Both the position numbers and the translations under genes were made by a program. Of a stretch of 64,000 nt of DNA, positions 7,262 to 60,678 are shown in pieces; position 1 is the first letter of the stretch; the number at the start of each line of letters is the position of its first letter. The DNA lies in the NCBI GenBank assembly GCA_964609095.1, contig CAZSQN010000001.1:11901-75900 (forward strand). Reading direction: 5' to 3'. The stretch is from an uncultured Gammaproteobacteria bacterium (GTDB lineage Bacteria > Patescibacteriota > Patescibacteriia > CAZSQN01). The notes under the pieces were generated by a model. The model saw nothing but the letters and a program-made list of their open reading frames with translations, was not told the DNA's origin and did no database searches.

Positions 7262-7336
7262 GCCGGCCGATTGACTTTAAATCCAAAAAGATTTAACCTG
7301 TTGCTTACACGCAGTTCCCTCACAAGGAGGTAGTAA

Positions 7337-8002
7337 ATGGCCTGGCCAAGATGTCTGGTTTTGGTTCGCCATGCGGAATCCGAAGGAAATGTGCTTTCGG
7401 TAGATGAGCGCGCTCGATTTGATAAAGCCACGCACGCTTACCCGCTGACGGCAAGGGGGCGGGAACAAGCCAGAGTAACCGGCGAATATCTTCAAAAGAA
7501 GTATGACCGTTTTGATATTCGCTATGTTTCCTACTACCAGCGTTCGCGGGAAACAATGGAGATAATGTGCCCGGGAGAAAAGGTTTACGAGGACCCGCGA
7601 TTGGCAGAAGCCCAGCGCGGCATCTATCACGCCATGACGCGCGATCAGATTAGAGCGCAGTTTCCCAGTGAACTTGAGCGCAAAAAGCGCGAAGGATTGT
7701 ACCATTACCGCCCGCTTGGCGGTGAAAACTGGCCTGATGTGGAATTGCGCATTCACAGTTTTCTCTCCACTCTCTCGCGCGATTATGTTGGAAAAAATGT
7801 GCTGATGGTAGTGCACGGACATTGGCTTTTGCTCTTCCAGCGGCTTATCCATCATTTCTCCATAGATGAAGCCGTGCGGCGCTACAAGGCCGGCGTGTTT
7901 GAAAACGCCTCGGTCACGCGCTATTGCGGAAGGCCCGCCGACAACAAATCCCATCTGGCGCTAGTGGAAGAAAATTCTGTTCCTTGGGCTGGAAAAATTT
8001 AA
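7337..8002 (+). CDS. histidine phosphatase (phosphoglycerate mutase-like) family protein
   Basis: RHG motif LVRHAESEGN near N-terminus and catalytic H further downstream (VVHGHWL). Confidence 0.8.
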   Translation: MAWPRCLVLVRHAESEGNVLSVDERARFDKATHAYPLTARGREQARVTGEYLQKKYDRFDIRYVSYYQRSRETMEIMCPGEKVYEDPRLAEAQRGIYHAMTRDQIRAQFPSELERKKREGLYHYRPLGGENWPDVELRIHSFLSTLSRDYVGKNVLMVVHGHWLLLFQRLIHHFSIDEAVRRYKAGVFENASVTRYCGRPADNKSHLALVEENSVPWAGKI

Positions 8003-8220: not shown

Positions 8221-8248
8221 AAATCCCGCTTAAGCGGGATTTATTTTT
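8221..8248. terminator. bidirectional rho-independent terminator hairpin (aaaaatcccgcttaagcgggatttattttt)
   Basis: perfect 8-bp GC-containing stem with A/T runs on both sides, between convergent genes. Confidence 0.5.
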
Positions 8249-8954
8249 AACTCTTGAGACGCGTTTCAAACGCGTCCAAGACCTTAGAAAGGATATTGCG
8301 CGCCGTTTCGGCTTCTTTTTCTTTTGAAGAGTCGTGCCAGCACATCTTGGGGTTAGAGCCGCAATTAAATCGCTCCCAAACGCGCTCATGGGCTTTGAGC
8401 AAATCCGCGAGCGTCCGCGGATTCATGGTCTTGCCGTGCTTTTTGGTTAAAGCGCGCGCCAGTTCGCGGCGGATAGCCGCTTCGGGATTAGCCACCAAAC
8501 ATACGTGAGCGTCAAAAAGCTCTCTGTTCCATGGCAAGAGAAAATAATTCTGGATTGTCTGCCTCTGCTCAACGGTCAGAATTGCTTTTTCTCCGTAAAA
8601 ATCCATCCTCACCACGCCATCCATAATGGCGCGGTCAAAAATCACCAGATGAAAATTCGGGTCATAAGAACGCTCGCGCGCCATCCCCAACGCGTACTCG
8701 GTTGTCTGGAAGTTGTATTGCGGCTCATCGCGAGGCAATTCCACAATTTCCGCGCCTTCGGTCGGCGTGGAAACACTCCAACCATTCCTGCGGAAAAAGT
8801 GCTTAAGCATTTCCTTCATCGTGCTTTTGCCGGATTTGGGCGTGCCAAAGAGCTCTATCATAAAAGGACGGGGCGAACCAACGGTTCTGCGGCCTTCGGG
8901 GTCAAAACTTTTTAGAATTTCCGCCGCGCGAAATTCCAGTTCTTCCTGCCTCAT
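8247..8954 (-). CDS. P-loop NTPase / putative nucleotide or nucleoside kinase
   Basis: Walker A LFGTPKSGKST; start taken at MRQEELEF (8954); specific substrate unknown. Confidence 0.5.
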   Translation of the reverse strand: MRQEELEFRAAEILKSFDPEGRRTVGSPRPFMIELFGTPKSGKSTMKEMLKHFFRRNGWSVSTPTEGAEIVELPRDEPQYNFQTTEYALGMARERSYDPNFHLVIFDRAIMDGVVRMDFYGEKAILTVEQRQTIQNYFLLPWNRELFDAHVCLVANPEAAIRRELARALTKKHGKTMNPRTLADLLKAHERVWERFNCGSNPKMCWHDSSKEKEAETARNILSKVLDAFETRLKS

Positions 8955-9142
8955 TCTTCTCCTCCGCAATGGACTTACATCAAAGTAAGCTCTTTTTGAA
9001 AAAAAGACAATTGTGCATATCTTGGAGGAGCGCCCGCTGATGATTGACACGCCCCGTCGCAAGAGTAAAATGTACACGAATAAGTCCTTTGACAAACAAA
9101 TCCAAGCAAGCCCGCGGGCAAGCTCAGGGCTGGGAGGTAACC

Positions 9143-9730
9143 ATGATCATCACCTTAACCGGTTCTTCCGGAGCGGGAAAAACCACCTATTGCCGGGAAC
9201 TGCTGGGCCGCAAGCCCAATTGGAAACTTGTGCCCAGCTACACCTCAAGAGCGCCGCGGCAAAAAGACCTGCCGGGTGAATATGTTTACAATGTCGGTCC
9301 CGAAGAGTTCGGCCGAATGGCAACAAACAATGAAACTGTCTGGCAAATAAACGAGCACGGAAATACTTATGCCACTTTGCGGCGAGACGTGGAAGACGCC
9401 GCAAAGAGCCCCGATGTTCGCCTGATGCTCCTTGCGCCGGACGCCGTGGAAATTCTGCGAGAAACCTTTGCCCGCGAAGAGATAATGCATTTTTATCTGC
9501 TTTCTCCGCCGGAAGCGGAGCTGCGCAAGCGGCTGGCGCGCCGAAACCTCCCGGAAGAGGAGATTGAACGCAGAATATCTGATTGTAAGGATTGGGATCA
9601 CGAAATACAGTGGTTTGAGATGACGCGGTACAGATTTATCCCGGGCGACATCAAGATAAATGATGCTGTTGACCTCTTGCTTAGAGATTACGAATTACAT
9701 TGTTATTTTCAAAGAAGGGAGCCAACATGA
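9143..9730 (+). CDS. guanylate kinase-like P-loop kinase
   Basis: Walker A TGSSGAGKTT and GMP-kinase-like motif SYTSRAPRQKDLPGEYVY; start at MIITLTG. Confidence 0.65.
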   Translation: MIITLTGSSGAGKTTYCRELLGRKPNWKLVPSYTSRAPRQKDLPGEYVYNVGPEEFGRMATNNETVWQINEHGNTYATLRRDVEDAAKSPDVRLMLLAPDAVEILRETFAREEIMHFYLLSPPEAELRKRLARRNLPEEEIERRISDCKDWDHEIQWFEMTRYRFIPGDIKINDAVDLLLRDYELHCYFQRREPT

Positions 9731-10491
9731 CGCAGGAAGAGAGATTCGCGCAAGTATTCAGGATGAACATAGCGCGGCGCAGCCGCACTGCCAAAGGCAA
9801 GGATGAAGGCGCCAAGACATCTTCAAAAAAGAAGCATCTACTTCTCTCCGGAGAGGAGCTCAAAAAACAGGTTGTTGTCAATACGGAAAAACTGATTGCT
9901 GATGTAGTAGCTTTGCCCATAGAGAAAATCTCTCCGAGCAAACTTCGGGAAATGGCAAACCTTTGGTTTGACATCACAACGGAAAGGCTTTGCGACCTAT
10001 CGGCATATGAAGAAGAATTTAAAACGCTTGAAGCCGCCGCCAACCGCTTTGGCCGGTCTTTGGGGACGCCAATTCAAATCAACAGGAATTACCGTCTGTG
10101 GACGCCCAAATACACAACGGCCAACATTCCTCCGCTCTGGCTTGAAAAATTTATGGACGAATTCTATTTTGATCTTTCACTCCGTATGTGCATAATGCGC
10201 GATATTTTCCCTGCCAAGGATTCAGCGGCATCCGGCGCCGCTTCTGAACAGGCAGCGCAAATCATGGCTTATGCCGATCTGATGATGGACGGAGAAATTC
10301 ATCCCTGGATTGACGGCTGCGGCAGGGTTTCCACCGCTTTGGTTATGTATATCGCACGCTACCTTCAAGCGCCTCTTCCGCTCTTTGCTCCAACCAGAGA
10401 AGAGCACTATGCTTCCATTAACGACATAGAAAAGCATACTAATTACTTTTGGGATGCCATGATGAGGGCAAAACAAGAAGTTCCAGAATAA
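9727..10491 (+). CDS. hypothetical protein with Fic/Doc-like motif (HPWIDGCGRVST)
   Basis: motif resembles Fic HPFx[DE]GNGRxxR but with Cys for Asn and lacking the terminal Arg; start overlaps upstream stop (ATGA); RBS aaggga 8 nt upstream. Confidence 0.45.
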   Translation: MTQEERFAQVFRMNIARRSRTAKGKDEGAKTSSKKKHLLLSGEELKKQVVVNTEKLIADVVALPIEKISPSKLREMANLWFDITTERLCDLSAYEEEFKTLEAAANRFGRSLGTPIQINRNYRLWTPKYTTANIPPLWLEKFMDEFYFDLSLRMCIMRDIFPAKDSAASGAASEQAAQIMAYADLMMDGEIHPWIDGCGRVSTALVMYIARYLQAPLPLFAPTREEHYASINDIEKHTNYFWDAMMRAKQEVPE

Positions 10492-10557
10492 CTTTCAAAT
10501 CTGCCTTGCAACTGCTACAATAACGGCGTTGCAAGGTTTTTTTATCCCGTTAGAGAT

Positions 10558-11175
10558 ATGACTAACGACTACAACCAAAAAAGAGAGGACGCGCTAAATT
10601 TTATAAAAAAGATTCACACCGGACAATTCCGCGCCAACAAAACCCCGGTCTGGCATCATCTTGACCGCGTGTCCAAACTTTTGGAAATTATAATGAGCGA
10701 AACAAATGAAGGAGATGAAAAAGAACGTGAAATAATCTGTCTGGCCGGATTGGGACACGATTCGCTTGAAGACACCGAGGTGTCGGAGGAAGAGCTTAAG
10801 GCATATTTTGGCGAACAAGGATTAGAGCTTATCCTTGGGATGACCAATCGTTTTGGCGACAATCATCCGGAGCCGTATGTGAAACAAATTTGTGAAAGCA
10901 ATGAGGGCGTGCGGCTGATAAAACTTTCGGATTTACAGGAAAACTGCGCGAGCGTCATTTATACGATTAAAGAATTGGGCGCAAAATGGACTGACGAATT
11001 CTTTCTTCCCATTGTCACGCCGATGATAGGAGCGATTATAAAAACAGAATTCCAAACATATCCCCAAAGCGCGGAGCGGCTTAAAAATATGGTTAGCGCC
11101 TCTTACGCCCTGCTTCTAAATGAACGCGAAAAGTTTGAAGAAAAACAAATCCAGTTAGAAGCCCCGATTTATTAA
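10558..11175 (+). CDS. RelA/SpoT-type HD-domain (p)ppGpp hydrolase (small alarmone hydrolase-like)
   Basis: HxxxRV ... LAGLGHDSLEDT ... VRLIKLSDLQEN matches the HD hydrolase signature of RelA/SpoT (LHDvvEDT, KLADRLhN). Confidence 0.75.
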   Translation: MTNDYNQKREDALNFIKKIHTGQFRANKTPVWHHLDRVSKLLEIIMSETNEGDEKEREIICLAGLGHDSLEDTEVSEEELKAYFGEQGLELILGMTNRFGDNHPEPYVKQICESNEGVRLIKLSDLQENCASVIYTIKELGAKWTDEFFLPIVTPMIGAIIKTEFQTYPQSAERLKNMVSASYALLLNEREKFEEKQIQLEAPIY

Positions 11176-11294
11176 ATCTTATTATCTTGTTCAGTAAAAT
11201 ATTCTCGGACGCGAGCTTCTAACGGGATAAATTGACCTTAAATAATCAATTTGAGATACTAAAATCGGCTCTTTGAAAAAGAAAGGCGGTAAAG

Positions 11295-12026
11295 ATGAGC
11301 ACGAGCGCGCGCCAAGCGGCTTTGGAACTGCTTTCCGAACCATTTGCCACCGTCTATGGCTTCTGCCACGCTTGCGTGATTCAAATACAAAGATTAGAGC
11401 CCAACGAAAGGATTGGATTTCTAATCTGTATTTTGGAAAACTACGGGCTTGTTCCGCTAAAGAAGACGCTGTTTATGACCGAACATCTCTTGTCGGTTGA
11501 AAAACTTGACCAACTGGAGGCCGAACAAAATCAGAATCTGGAGATATTGTACAAAGCAACAGCAACTGTTTTTCCGCCAACAGAAGAATTTGCTAAATAT
11601 TTGCTTGGGGCCATGGATGCGCATAAGACGCCGGAGGAAAAGGCACTCGTTATCAGGCATCTGATTTTGCGCCAGCTTCTGCCTTACGCGCCGGTTCTGC
11701 CTAAGGCCTCCAAATGTCTTGCCGAAACGGAGATGGAAAAAGCTTTTGAGGAGTATCCAAAAGAAGCCGCCGCGATCAAACGGCTCTTTGCCTTTGGCAC
11801 AGAGGAGCACACTTGGTGCGAGGTGGCGGAAATTCTAATGAAGATACTGGCGAAAAAACCAGACGACGCTCAGATATTGCTTTTAGCCCTTTTCCTGACC
11901 GGATTAGCTAAAAAAGTTACCGTTGAAGCGGCCAGAATAGCGCTTGAAGAATTTCTAAAAGACAACGAGGTAATGATTGTTGCGGAAGAAGACGGTTCCA
12001 AGAATCCGCCAAAAAACGGAAATTGA
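11295..12026 (+). CDS. hypothetical protein
   Basis: 243-aa ORF followed by strong terminator; no motif recognised. Confidence 0.5.
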   Translation: MSTSARQAALELLSEPFATVYGFCHACVIQIQRLEPNERIGFLICILENYGLVPLKKTLFMTEHLLSVEKLDQLEAEQNQNLEILYKATATVFPPTEEFAKYLLGAMDAHKTPEEKALVIRHLILRQLLPYAPVLPKASKCLAETEMEKAFEEYPKEAAAIKRLFAFGTEEHTWCEVAEILMKILAKKPDDAQILLLALFLTGLAKKVTVEAARIALEEFLKDNEVMIVAEEDGSKNPPKNGN

Positions 12027-12044
12027 ACAAACTAAAATCCCTCC

Positions 12045-12080
12045 TTGTTAAAGGAGGGATTATTTTTTTTGAAATTAACC
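12045..12080. terminator. rho-independent terminator (atccctccttgttaaaggagggat + T-run)
   Basis: 10-bp stem then tttttttt; between convergent genes. Confidence 0.55.
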
Positions 12081-48081: not shown

Positions 48082-48696
48082 TTAACGAGCAGAAGAACGC
48101 AATTCGTAGAATTCTACATACCTGAATATGTCTCTTTGTAGGCGTAAGGCAGAATCTTGTTTATCCTCGGGCGTGATGGCAAGAAGACGTTCTAGAATGG
48201 GGAAATATTTTTCACGCGTTTCCTCAACCTGCTTGCGCTGGAAATCTCGTTTGCAGCCGTCCAGATGTCGCAGATTGTCCAGACGGTCAGCCACCTTGAC
48301 CATAAGCGCGCGCCAATCGTCGCAGTTTAGAAGCCGTTCAATGTATCCTTCTTTTGGAACTTTGGAGAGCAGCATTACAAGATGCGCCACATTCTGACCG
48401 AAGAGTTCATTAAGAAACTCATAGTCAATATCATGCGTGTCCTCAATACAATCATGCAGGAGCGCGGTGATAATCATAATCGGATTAAAGCATTGAAGTT
48501 CGTCTATCAGGATGAGAGCTACGCGCCGCGGATGCTCAAAATAACGCATTGATTGGCCGGCCGCATCTAATTCCATGCGGATTTGCCAGCGATGGCCGTA
48601 TTTTGCGAGGATATAGGCAAGTTTTACTTTCAAAAAAATTTTACGGTCTAAAACTGGCGCAAGCCGATCAAAGAAGGTGTCGCGATTTTCTTTCAC
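48082..48696 (-). CDS. RelA/SpoT-type HD-domain (p)ppGpp hydrolase paralog
   Basis: HPRRVALIL ... ALLHDCIEDT ... KVADRLDNLRHL. Confidence 0.7.
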   Translation of the reverse strand: MKENRDTFFDRLAPVLDRKIFLKVKLAYILAKYGHRWQIRMELDAAGQSMRYFEHPRRVALILIDELQCFNPIMIITALLHDCIEDTHDIDYEFLNELFGQNVAHLVMLLSKVPKEGYIERLLNCDDWRALMVKVADRLDNLRHLDGCKRDFQRKQVEETREKYFPILERLLAITPEDKQDSALRLQRDIFRYVEFYELRSSAR

Positions 48697-57026: not shown

Positions 57027-57098
57027 TGCGCGTGCTAGGATTCGAACCTAGAACCAGTCGTGTATAAGACGACGGCTCTACCATTGAGCTACACGCGC
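57027..57098 (-). tRNA. tRNA-Ile (anticodon TAT / UAU)
   Basis: revcomp GCGCGTGTAGCTCAATGGTAGAGCCGTCGTCTTATACACGACTGGTTCTAGGTTCGAATCCTAGCACGCGCA; anticodon stem GTCGT/ACGAC, loop CTTATAC; flanked by 15-nt inverted repeat atgacaacaaatat / atatttgttgtcat. Confidence 0.75.
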
Positions 57099-60017: not shown

Positions 60018-60100
60018 TTATCAATTTTTAATTTTCAATAAATTTTTATTGAGAGATGAAAAATTCAATGAAAATTGTTAATTGAAAATTGGAAATTTTA
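60018..60100. repeat. AT-rich palindromic intergenic element related to 5621-5735
   Basis: aattttcaataaatttttattgaga ... gaaaattgttaattgaaaattgg. Confidence 0.4.
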
Positions 60101-60678
60101 TGATTATCACCATTTCCGGCCTGCCCGGAGCGGGAAAAACAACCACCGCCAGACTTTTAGCCGAACGGCTCGGCTACAGGTATTATTCCATGGGCGATTT
60201 GCGCGGGAAGATGGCCACGGAGCGAGGATTGACCATAGACGAGCTTAACGAAAAGGCAAAAAGCGACCCGACGAGCCATACGGCCGTGGATGAATATCAG
60301 AAAAAACTCGGAGAAACAGAAGTCAATTTTATAATTGACGGCTGGATGAGCTGGCGCTTTATCCCCGATTCTTTTAAGGTCTTTATGACCATTGATCCGG
60401 ATGAGGCGGCCTTAAGAATCTTTGAGGCGAAAAAGAAAGACCCCAGCCGGAGCGATGAACCTGATTATACAAGCGTTGAAGATGCCAAAGAGACGATAAC
60501 GCGCAGAGTGGAAGTGACCAGAAAACAATTTAAGGATTTATACGGAGTGGATTTTACGGACCCGGCAAATTATGATGCCGTAATTGATACCACCGGTCAG
60601 GCATCGGCCAATGAGACGGTGGAGAAGATACTAAAGGCAATGAAAGAACAAGGACTTCTAACGGGGTTGACAGTTTAG
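60100..60678 (+). CDS. cytidylate kinase-like P-loop kinase
   Basis: Walker A ISGLPGAGKTT; start at MIITISG. Confidence 0.7.
   Translation: MIITISGLPGAGKTTTARLLAERLGYRYYSMGDLRGKMATERGLTIDELNEKAKSDPTSHTAVDEYQKKLGETEVNFIIDGWMSWRFIPDSFKVFMTIDPDEAALRIFEAKKKDPSRSDEPDYTSVEDAKETITRRVEVTRKQFKDLYGVDFTDPANYDAVIDTTGQASANETVEKILKAMKEQGLLTGLTV

Follow-up and report, generated by a model that had tools for sequence, protein, structure and literature searches.

Fic enzymes are known as protein modifiers that are gated by an inhibitory glutamate. In the class II Fic AMP-transferases, which include FICD/HYPE, BT_2513, CdFic and SoFic, an inhibitory helix lies N-terminal to the core. Doc of phage P1, with the motif HxFx(D/N)(A/G)NKR, and AnkX both retain the asparagine of the Fic motif, and neither comes with a partner kinase or hydrolase. 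Small alarmone hydrolases and Mesh1 are built from a single HD_4 domain, and the gene for one small alarmone hydrolase, ATfaRel, adjoins that for the enzyme whose product ATfaRel degrades (PMC7229694). Here we describe a locus in which a Fido protein, a P-loop protein and a hydrolase of this type are encoded side by side. It lies in a 64,000-nucleotide stretch of contig CAZSQN010000001.1 (positions 11,901 to 75,900), which we call the window and whose coordinates we use throughout. Five open reading frames (ORFs), named A to E, occupy 8.2-12.0 kb of the window, and the middle three form a conserved module that is physically coupled rather than a chance cluster. B (9143-9730, plus strand, 195 amino acids) is a guanylate-kinase-fold P-loop kinase, C (9727-10491, plus strand, 254 amino acids) is a divergent FICD-like (class II-like) Fido-fold protein, and D (10558-11175, plus strand, 205 amino acids) is a single-domain Rel/SpoT/Mesh1-type HD phosphohydrolase. 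A sequence-only reading of this DNA had listed the five ORFs with their motifs, each of which is present, and had grouped them into one five-gene cassette. That grouping shrinks to B-C-D, because A stands in housekeeping synteny elsewhere and E is absent from related loci. A, C and D are each 100% identical to NCBI entries from a single contig of a Candidatus Uhrbacteria (Patescibacteria/candidate phyla radiation, CPR) metagenome-assembled genome (MAG). We compared 31 collected loci, whose ORFs were searched with the window proteins.

C gave no match to Pfam, NCBIfam or PHROGs families, and the Pfam Fic model PF02661 did not match it even at E<=1. Its identical NCBI entry is HYT45_04255. The family to which it belongs is small, unnamed, rare and patchy (64 clusters among 5.8 billion), with members solely from metagenomes and MAGs; a cluster look-up of wide-family members likewise returned only unnamed, metagenome-only clusters. 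When C alone was searched against the PDB, the only match was a Fido protein at E=1.8, and a profile of the close family (A2) found nothing relevant. Only the wide-family profile (A7) reached FICD. This profile comprised 38 single-domain members with the window's C as its first row, and it matched human FICD (E=9e-16), Caenorhabditis elegans FIC-1 (9e-10) and BT_2513 (2e-8). A profile search of 1.84 billion representatives yielded 315 relatives, among them stand-alone homologs of an N-terminal domain that is fused to C in some loci, and three distant members of the family (P0189, P0195 and P0210) pass the PF02661 gathering score. An AlphaFold2 model of C, built with 38 homologs, was all-helical and very confident (predicted local distance difference test score, pLDDT, 93.8; predicted template modelling score, pTM, 0.91), and its fold is that of Fido proteins, with their all-alpha core. 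By fold and profile, we place C in the Fic superfamily as a highly divergent member whose nearest kin are the FICD-type class II proteins.

The loop HPWIDGCGR of C (10300-10326, plus strand) is followed by VST, where a canonical Fic protein has xxR. The profile alignment placed HPWIDGCGRVST of C on HPFIDGNGRTSR of FICD, indicating that this is a true Fic active-site loop. In the numbering of the 263-codon ORF, which we use for all residues of C, the position of the Asn in HPFIDGNGR is taken by C207 and that of the second Arg by T212. The complete motif HxFx(D/E)GNGRxxR is thus represented in C by its His, Asp, both Gly and first Arg, with Cys instead of Asn and Thr instead of the second Arg. 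The sequence RYRLW was aligned with the FICD flap GRFRT and keeps the flap Arg; DSSP analysis of the model gave isolated bridges only, at residues 131 and 203, and no flap hairpin was seen. Compared with the class II enzymes, C retains the His, Pro, Asp, Gly-x-Gly nest, first Arg and flap Arg, and has a conserved Ser...Gly element N-terminal to the core. It differs in carrying Trp for Phe, Cys (Val or Met in a sister clade) for Asn and, in the clade that includes the window's C, Thr in place of the second Arg. It also lacks the inhibitory Glu, and it is associated with a P-loop partner and a linked HD hydrolase instead of TPR, HTH or other known accessory domains. The substitutions in Doc are of another kind, and the pairing with a kinase and a hydrolase sets C apart from both Doc and AnkX. 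The sequence-only reading had described a Fic-like loop with Cys for Asn and no terminal Arg as the only recognisable feature of C. The loop is genuine, as judged by the Fido fold, the homology to FICD and the invariant motif residues of 24 homologs, and both substitutions stand.

Conservation within the family supports the same assignment. A motif survey that took in about 150 relatives gave the family motif HP[WFY]xDG[C/V/M]GR. In an alignment of 24 homologs, P202, W203, D205, C207 and R209 never vary, while S28, L54, R132, H201, P202, D205 and R209 are invariant in the wide family at a mean identity of 26%. The close family has 18-28 invariant columns, depending on the alignment. Of about 126 sequences bearing the motif, nearly all have Cys at position 207, and one has Asn. 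We considered Cys207 as a catalytic nucleophile, and this proposal is weakened by the Val or Met of the sister clade: a residue that is characteristic but not universal speaks against an obligatory nucleophile.

A second element, S-R-T-A-K-G (S28 to G33; 9781-9798, plus strand), lies near the N terminus. Its family pattern, S-R-T-x-x-G(xSDTSxSxxK), is as conserved as the active-site loop. In the wide family S28 is invariant, T30 is nearly invariant, and G33 is either invariant or almost so, according to the alignment used. The element matches the class II inhibitory motif (S/T)xxxE(G/N) except at the Glu position, where K, S, A, Q, R or H occurs but E never does, and it appears to sit where the inhibitory helix of class II Fic proteins sits. 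The loss of the motif Asn, the second Arg and the inhibitory Glu argues that C is not a canonical Glu-gated protein AMPylator.

These features bear directly on the idea that C modifies proteins, AMPylating or phosphorylating its P-loop partner or another protein and thereby switching nucleotide kinase activity, with D a mere neighbor. The nearest structural and profile relatives of C (FICD, BT_2513 and CdFic) are AMPylases, P-loop NTPases are common among known Fic targets, the flap Arg is conserved, and fusions of enzyme and partner exist. This idea has to accommodate the disappearance of all three residues named above, as well as a model with isolated bridges in place of a flap hairpin, and it leaves unexplained the link between D and the motif His that we describe below. 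We regard protein modification by C as improbable.

We then examined the P-loop partner. In the window, the TGA stop codon of B overlaps the start codon of C (ATGA, 9727-9730). The ATG of B is preceded by a GGGAGG ribosome-binding site, and further upstream is TTGACA-16-TAAAAT (9044-9071, plus strand), the promoter-like site that scores best in the region, which agrees with the consensus at 11/12 positions and is a consensus match only. B shares with Gmk the guanylate kinase fold, the P-loop (GSSGAGKTT) and the TSRxxR segment that binds nucleoside monophosphates (NMPs), here TSRAPR..GEY. It scored 37.3 bits against the Pfam Guanylate_kin model (cutoff 25.2) and matched guanylate kinases in the PDB with E-values down to 4e-15. 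Against the gmk equivalog model TIGR03263, however, B reached 76 bits, less than half of the cutoff of 160.45. B is therefore not an orthologous gmk, in line with the sequence-only reading. It further differs from Gmk in its translational coupling or fusion to a Fido protein, and thymidylate-kinase-like or MinD-like partners can stand in its place. The window showed no canonical gmk. The only other small nucleotide-kinase-like ORF there (60082-60678, plus strand) is of the archaeal (d)CMP kinase type and scored 90 bits against TIGR02173, whose cutoff is 102.

Where upstream sequence is available, a P-loop partner lies no more than about 2 kb from C, L011 being the one exception, and the identity of the partner varies. 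Guanylate-kinase-like partners overlap C by 4 nt in the window, L005 and L031 and are fused to it in P0022. Thymidylate-kinase-like partners overlap C by 4 nt in L025 and L027 and are fused to it in P0113 and P0136. A small MinD-like domain, which we call Nfus, is fused to the N terminus of C in 8 loci (about 25 proteins) and stands alone, divergent from C, in L006, L013 and L028. A 372-amino-acid AAA_28 protein is the partner in L003, L007 and L016, and an A-type kinase is the sole partner in L023 and L024. Fusions of C to P-loop partners are thus of at least three independent kinds (guanylate-kinase-like, thymidylate-kinase-like and MinD-like), and the 4-nt overlaps are kept across loci whose GC content ranges from 41% to 64%. 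The model of a fused protein (pLDDT 89, pTM 0.87) suggests, by its pTM, a defined domain interface. The notion of a universal NMP kinase partner was rejected, since the N-terminal domain of the fusions resembles MinD/Mrp/BioD.

The pairing also extends beyond the close family. AAA-Csx3 is an accessory ring-nuclease module of type III CRISPR systems, and the wider family includes two fusions of AAA-Csx3 to Fic (P0170 and P0195) and two of Fic to Zeta_toxin kinases (P0205 and P0210). These Zeta/PezT-type and AAA-Csx3 proteins are distant members of the same family, so pairing of a P-loop domain with a Fido domain, as in B-C, recurs. They differ from the B-C pair in being large, multidomain and metagenome-only, and in lacking a D-type hydrolase. 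One case of fusion to a thioredoxin-reductase-like domain also occurs among the distant members.

The third gene of the module codes for a hydrolase. D scored 27.7 bits against Pfam HD_4 (cutoff 27.2), and TIGR00691 matched its hydrolase region only; there is no synthetase domain. In the PDB it matched Lmo0812 (E=3e-6), small alarmone hydrolases (about 1e-5 to 1e-4) and Mesh1 (E=0.02). It retains H34, H67, D68, E71, D72, D125 and N129 of the Rel/Mesh1 hydrolases, sharing with the small alarmone hydrolases and Mesh1 the His, HD, ED and D..N residues of the single HD_4 domain. The earlier call of a small-alarmone-hydrolase-type HD protein is thereby borne out, and the sequence indicates a Rel/Mesh1-type HD (pyro)phosphohydrolase with an intact predicted active site. 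D belongs to a rare subfamily of its own (34 homolog clusters at E<=1e-10, many on contigs that also bear C), with the motifs GMTNRFGD and FLPIVxPM. A second HD_4 hydrolase is encoded at 48082-48696, as had been noted, and lies on the minus strand; its description as a paralog fared less well, as it is only 20% identical to D and is a more canonical single-domain Rel/SpoT-type protein (77 bits against spoT_relA versus 35 for D).

In 10 loci D is the gene immediately after C, and in 2 others the two are 1.7-1.8 kb apart. The presence of D tracks the active-site motif of C. We found D within 2 kb of C in 12/13 loci whose C carries the motif His (His-type) and in 0/6 loci with enough flanking sequence in which Arg replaces this His (Arg-type), a difference with a Fisher p of 2.6e-4 when kinship among the loci is ignored. 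A neighborhood search around the fused Arg-type genes likewise found no D and no conserved neighbors. One MAG, labeled Candidatus Binatia, encodes two C paralogs (VL426_00125 = P0016 and VL426_07490 = P0043; loci L003/L009): one is a His-type stand-alone C with an AAA_28 gene and D nearby, and the other is an Arg-type fusion to the MinD-like domain. The occurrence of both in one MAG indicates that the His-type and Arg-type forms are paralogs with different contexts. In the AAA_28-type loci L003/L007 (10539-11752 / 9482-10730), D overlaps or directly precedes a gene for GTP cyclohydrolase II (RibA), and genes of the fatty acid hydroxylase family also lie beside D.

The spacer between C and D holds a GC-rich hairpin followed by a U-run (10503-10543, plus strand; -19.6 kcal/mol, z -3.5), with the -10-like sequence TGCTACAAT in its loop. 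A promoter-like site, TTCAAA-16-TACAAT with an upstream TG, lies in the same region (10494-10521). Hairpins with U-runs occupy the same place in 9/10 of the loci (the window, L031, L005, L027, L013, L023, L024, L025 and L028), and their sequences are unrelated. Four of these hairpins, those of the window, L031, L005 and L013, carry a -10-like element (TGnTAnAAT or TATAAT) in the loop. This arrangement suggests a compact terminator-promoter element, and B-C and D are probably separate transcription units that are kept adjacent.

In other loci, neighboring genes encode nucleotide enzymes, namely NT5C (twice), ribonucleotide reductase (RNR), NUDIX and GTP cyclohydrolase II. Together, the conserved B-C-D unit points to a nucleotide-centered regulatory or toxin-like module, in keeping with what had been proposed from the sequence. 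We favor a writer-eraser module acting on a phosphorylated nucleotide and give this reading a probability of roughly 0.4. C would still bind a nucleotide di- or triphosphate in a changed mode, as suggested by its retained His, Asp, Gly-x-Gly nest, first Fic-loop Arg and flap Arg. The partner kinase would supply or position the phosphorylated nucleotide substrate, and C and the kinase would together write a phosphoryl or nucleotidyl mark, either on a small-molecule nucleotide (alarmone-like) or on a substrate bearing a 3'-OH. D would erase the mark by hydrolyzing a ribose-linked (pyro)phosphate. B and C would be translated from one mRNA via the ATGA overlap, with D transcribed separately, downstream of the hairpin. 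A would be a frequent neighbor in the same metabolic theme, and E would be unrelated. The logic resembles that of the toxic small alarmone synthetases (toxSAS) with the hydrolase antitoxin ATfaRel (PMC7229694). D, like ATfaRel beside FaRel, is encoded next to a candidate nucleotide-modifying enzyme; it differs in that this neighbor is a Fido protein and not a RelA/SpoT synthetase.

Several observations weigh against the writer-eraser reading. We infer its chemistry, and secondary structure and conservation are our only guides to the geometry of the C pocket and to where the N-terminal element lies. The roughly 25 N-terminally fused proteins have Arg in place of the motif His (RPWLDGCGR), and position 207 is Val or Met in the sister clade, so neither residue is universally catalytic. 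One of the partner types, a MinD/BioD-like NTPase, is no nucleotide kinase, which weakens the step in which a kinase supplies the substrate. In one His-type locus (L006/L010), D is missing from the surrounding 7 kb, and the terminator-like hairpin between C and D argues that the two genes are not strictly co-transcribed. Finally, the independent loci number about 20 and are phylogenetically related.

A more specific form of the proposal casts the Fido and P-loop pair as a new nucleotide (pyro)phosphoryl- or nucleotidyl-transferase that makes an alarmone-like molecule or marks a 3'-OH end, functionally replacing a RelA/SpoT-type synthetase in Patescibacteria, while D would be the eraser dedicated to it. 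As the AnkX-type binding mode illustrates, the Fido fold can direct attack on a beta-phosphate, which with ATP would amount to pyrophosphoryl transfer. We consider this specific chemistry a long shot.

The same genes could instead make up a toxin-antitoxin or defense-type module, in which C and its kinase are a growth-arresting Fic toxin and D is a type IV-like antitoxin that breaks down or undoes what C produces, in the manner of ATfaRel with toxSAS. Fic proteins are often toxins, the distribution is patchy, and the absence of the inhibitory Glu would leave C constitutively uninhibited. The wider family is fused to Zeta_toxin kinases and to CRISPR-associated AAA-Csx3, and a small alarmone hydrolase serving as antitoxin has a precedent (PMC7229694). 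The genomic context speaks otherwise. PADLOC returned only weak, marginal matches, with E-values from 4e-4 to 0.05 and none to a known defense-system protein: mad8 was matched by A and B (best E=4e-4), CARF_TM and VakA appeared near E=0.05, and C marginally matched the Fic-type PDC-S04 (E=0.006). Plasmid, phage and IMG/VR collections searched with C and two wide-family members contained no relatives. The window genes that flank the cluster are ordinary (YifB/ComM ATPase, histidine phosphatase, LysM/M23 peptidase and inorganic pyrophosphatase), and this housekeeping synteny is stable between the window and L031, its closest syntenic relative. A terminator separates the putative toxin from an antitoxin that would, atypically, lie downstream, and the Arg-type fused paralogs occur alone, with no candidate antitoxin. 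A toxin-antitoxin function thus seems quite unlikely to us, and the suggestion of a defense cassette in the sequence-only reading loses its footing with the weak PADLOC matches, the lack of relatives in mobile elements and the housekeeping flanks.

A, upstream of B on the opposite strand (8247-8954, minus strand, 235 amino acids; P-loop LFGTPKSGKST), is a deoxynucleoside-kinase-like protein. It is 100% identical to the NCBI hypothetical protein HYT45_04265, and its family (73 homologs, mostly 55-75% identical) is widespread in Patescibacteria. The family profile matched the deoxynucleoside kinase 1j90 over about 180 residues (E=8e-6) and also the deoxyguanosine kinase 2jaq. An FDR motif is conserved, and the only Pfam match is AAA_28 at 24.5 bits, below the cutoff of 27. 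A-type genes adjoin C in L005, L023, L024, L025 and L031. We rejected A as a specific member of the module because its homologs in L029 and L030 stand without C or D, within a SecDF...MnmA-AlaRS synteny. The most plausible reading of A is a salvage kinase that commonly, though not invariably, neighbors the module.

This leads to the view that the locus is an ordinary nucleotide salvage cluster of a CPR bacterium without de novo nucleotide synthesis, with A, B and D as housekeeping enzymes and C as a non-catalytic regulatory or scaffolding subunit of an NMP kinase, for example a sensor of nucleotide levels. Consistent with it are the wide conservation of A, the housekeeping flanks, and the NT5C, RNR, NUDIX and RibA neighbors in other loci. 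In the window, no gmk other than B was seen, and the one further small kinase is cmk-like; the motif His is also dispensable in one clade. Against it, both C and D have a rare and patchy distribution (of 5.8 billion clusters, 64 contain C and 34 contain D), close relatives of A occur without them, and B falls far below the gmk equivalog cutoff. The partner types are freely swapped, a non-kinase included, unlike in a fixed metabolic step, and the catalytic-loop His, Asp and Arg are invariant outside one clade. A salvage cluster is an explanation that we take seriously but find unlikely. The preference for a regulatory module over core salvage genes in the sequence-only reading fails for A, a member of a deoxynucleoside-kinase-like salvage family in housekeeping synteny, and holds for B, C and D as a coupled unit.

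E (11295-12026, plus strand, 243 amino acids) is an orphan ORF with no family or PDB match and no tblastn match in any related locus. In L031, whose proteins are 44% (A), 64% (B), 69% (C), 73% (D) and 66% (M23 peptidase) identical to those of the window, D is followed directly by the LysM/M23 peptidase gene. E was rejected as a module member because it is absent from L031 and all other loci; it is a lineage-specific insert.

If adjacency by descent were the whole story, there would be no functional unit and C would be a decaying pseudo-enzyme. The loci are few and related, and adjacency of A and C is not general, both of which fit such a view. Decay is hard to reconcile with independent fusions, with 4-nt overlaps that persist over the stated range of GC content, with the 18-28 invariant columns of the close family, with the very confident model of C and with the tracking of D with the His-type motif. 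We disfavor this explanation as very improbable.

Terminator-like hairpins bracket the cluster. One lies at its A-side edge (8221-8242), and the other, at the far edge (12036-12061), is bidirectional, with an 11-bp stem and a T-run on both strands. Beside A lies a histidine phosphatase (His_Phos_1) gene (7337-8002, plus strand); another follows the fused C gene in L017 (2776-3546). The two proteins match each other at E=1e-23, which may be a coincidence in so common a family. A 225-amino-acid ORF antisense to the window's histidine phosphatase gene (7277-7954, minus strand) is almost certainly spurious. Bacteria mostly decode AUA with a lysidine-modified CAU tRNA, and the TAT anticodon is uncommon; ARAGORN and Rfam identify a tRNA-Ile with anticodon TAT at 57027-57098 (minus strand).

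Literature searches returned nothing relevant on the DGCGR motif, on Fic proteins with small alarmone hydrolases, Csx3 or guanylate kinase, or on CPR small alarmone hydrolases. The main text of a survey of Fic proteins (PMC4454073) mentions neither a Cys variant nor co-occurrence with kinase or HD proteins. The C family thus represents a Fido subfamily and a conserved gene architecture that are both new, and neither its motif variant nor a module of Fic protein, kinase and hydrolase was found described in the searchable literature. The family sets itself apart in being invisible to Pfam, NCBIfam and PHROGs, and both its catalytic loop and its inhibitory element have been rewritten. It is paired with a P-loop protein that uses nucleoside triphosphates, and its His-bearing form travels with a dedicated Rel/Mesh1-type hydrolase. 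Read conservatively, our analysis names a group of "hypothetical proteins", places them in a context that can be tested and connects them to the Fic fusions with Zeta-toxin kinases and Csx3. If the pair does write a nucleotide mark that D erases, this would be new chemistry for the Fido fold and a new route of nucleotide signaling or control in CPR bacteria, whose nucleotide economy depends on salvage.

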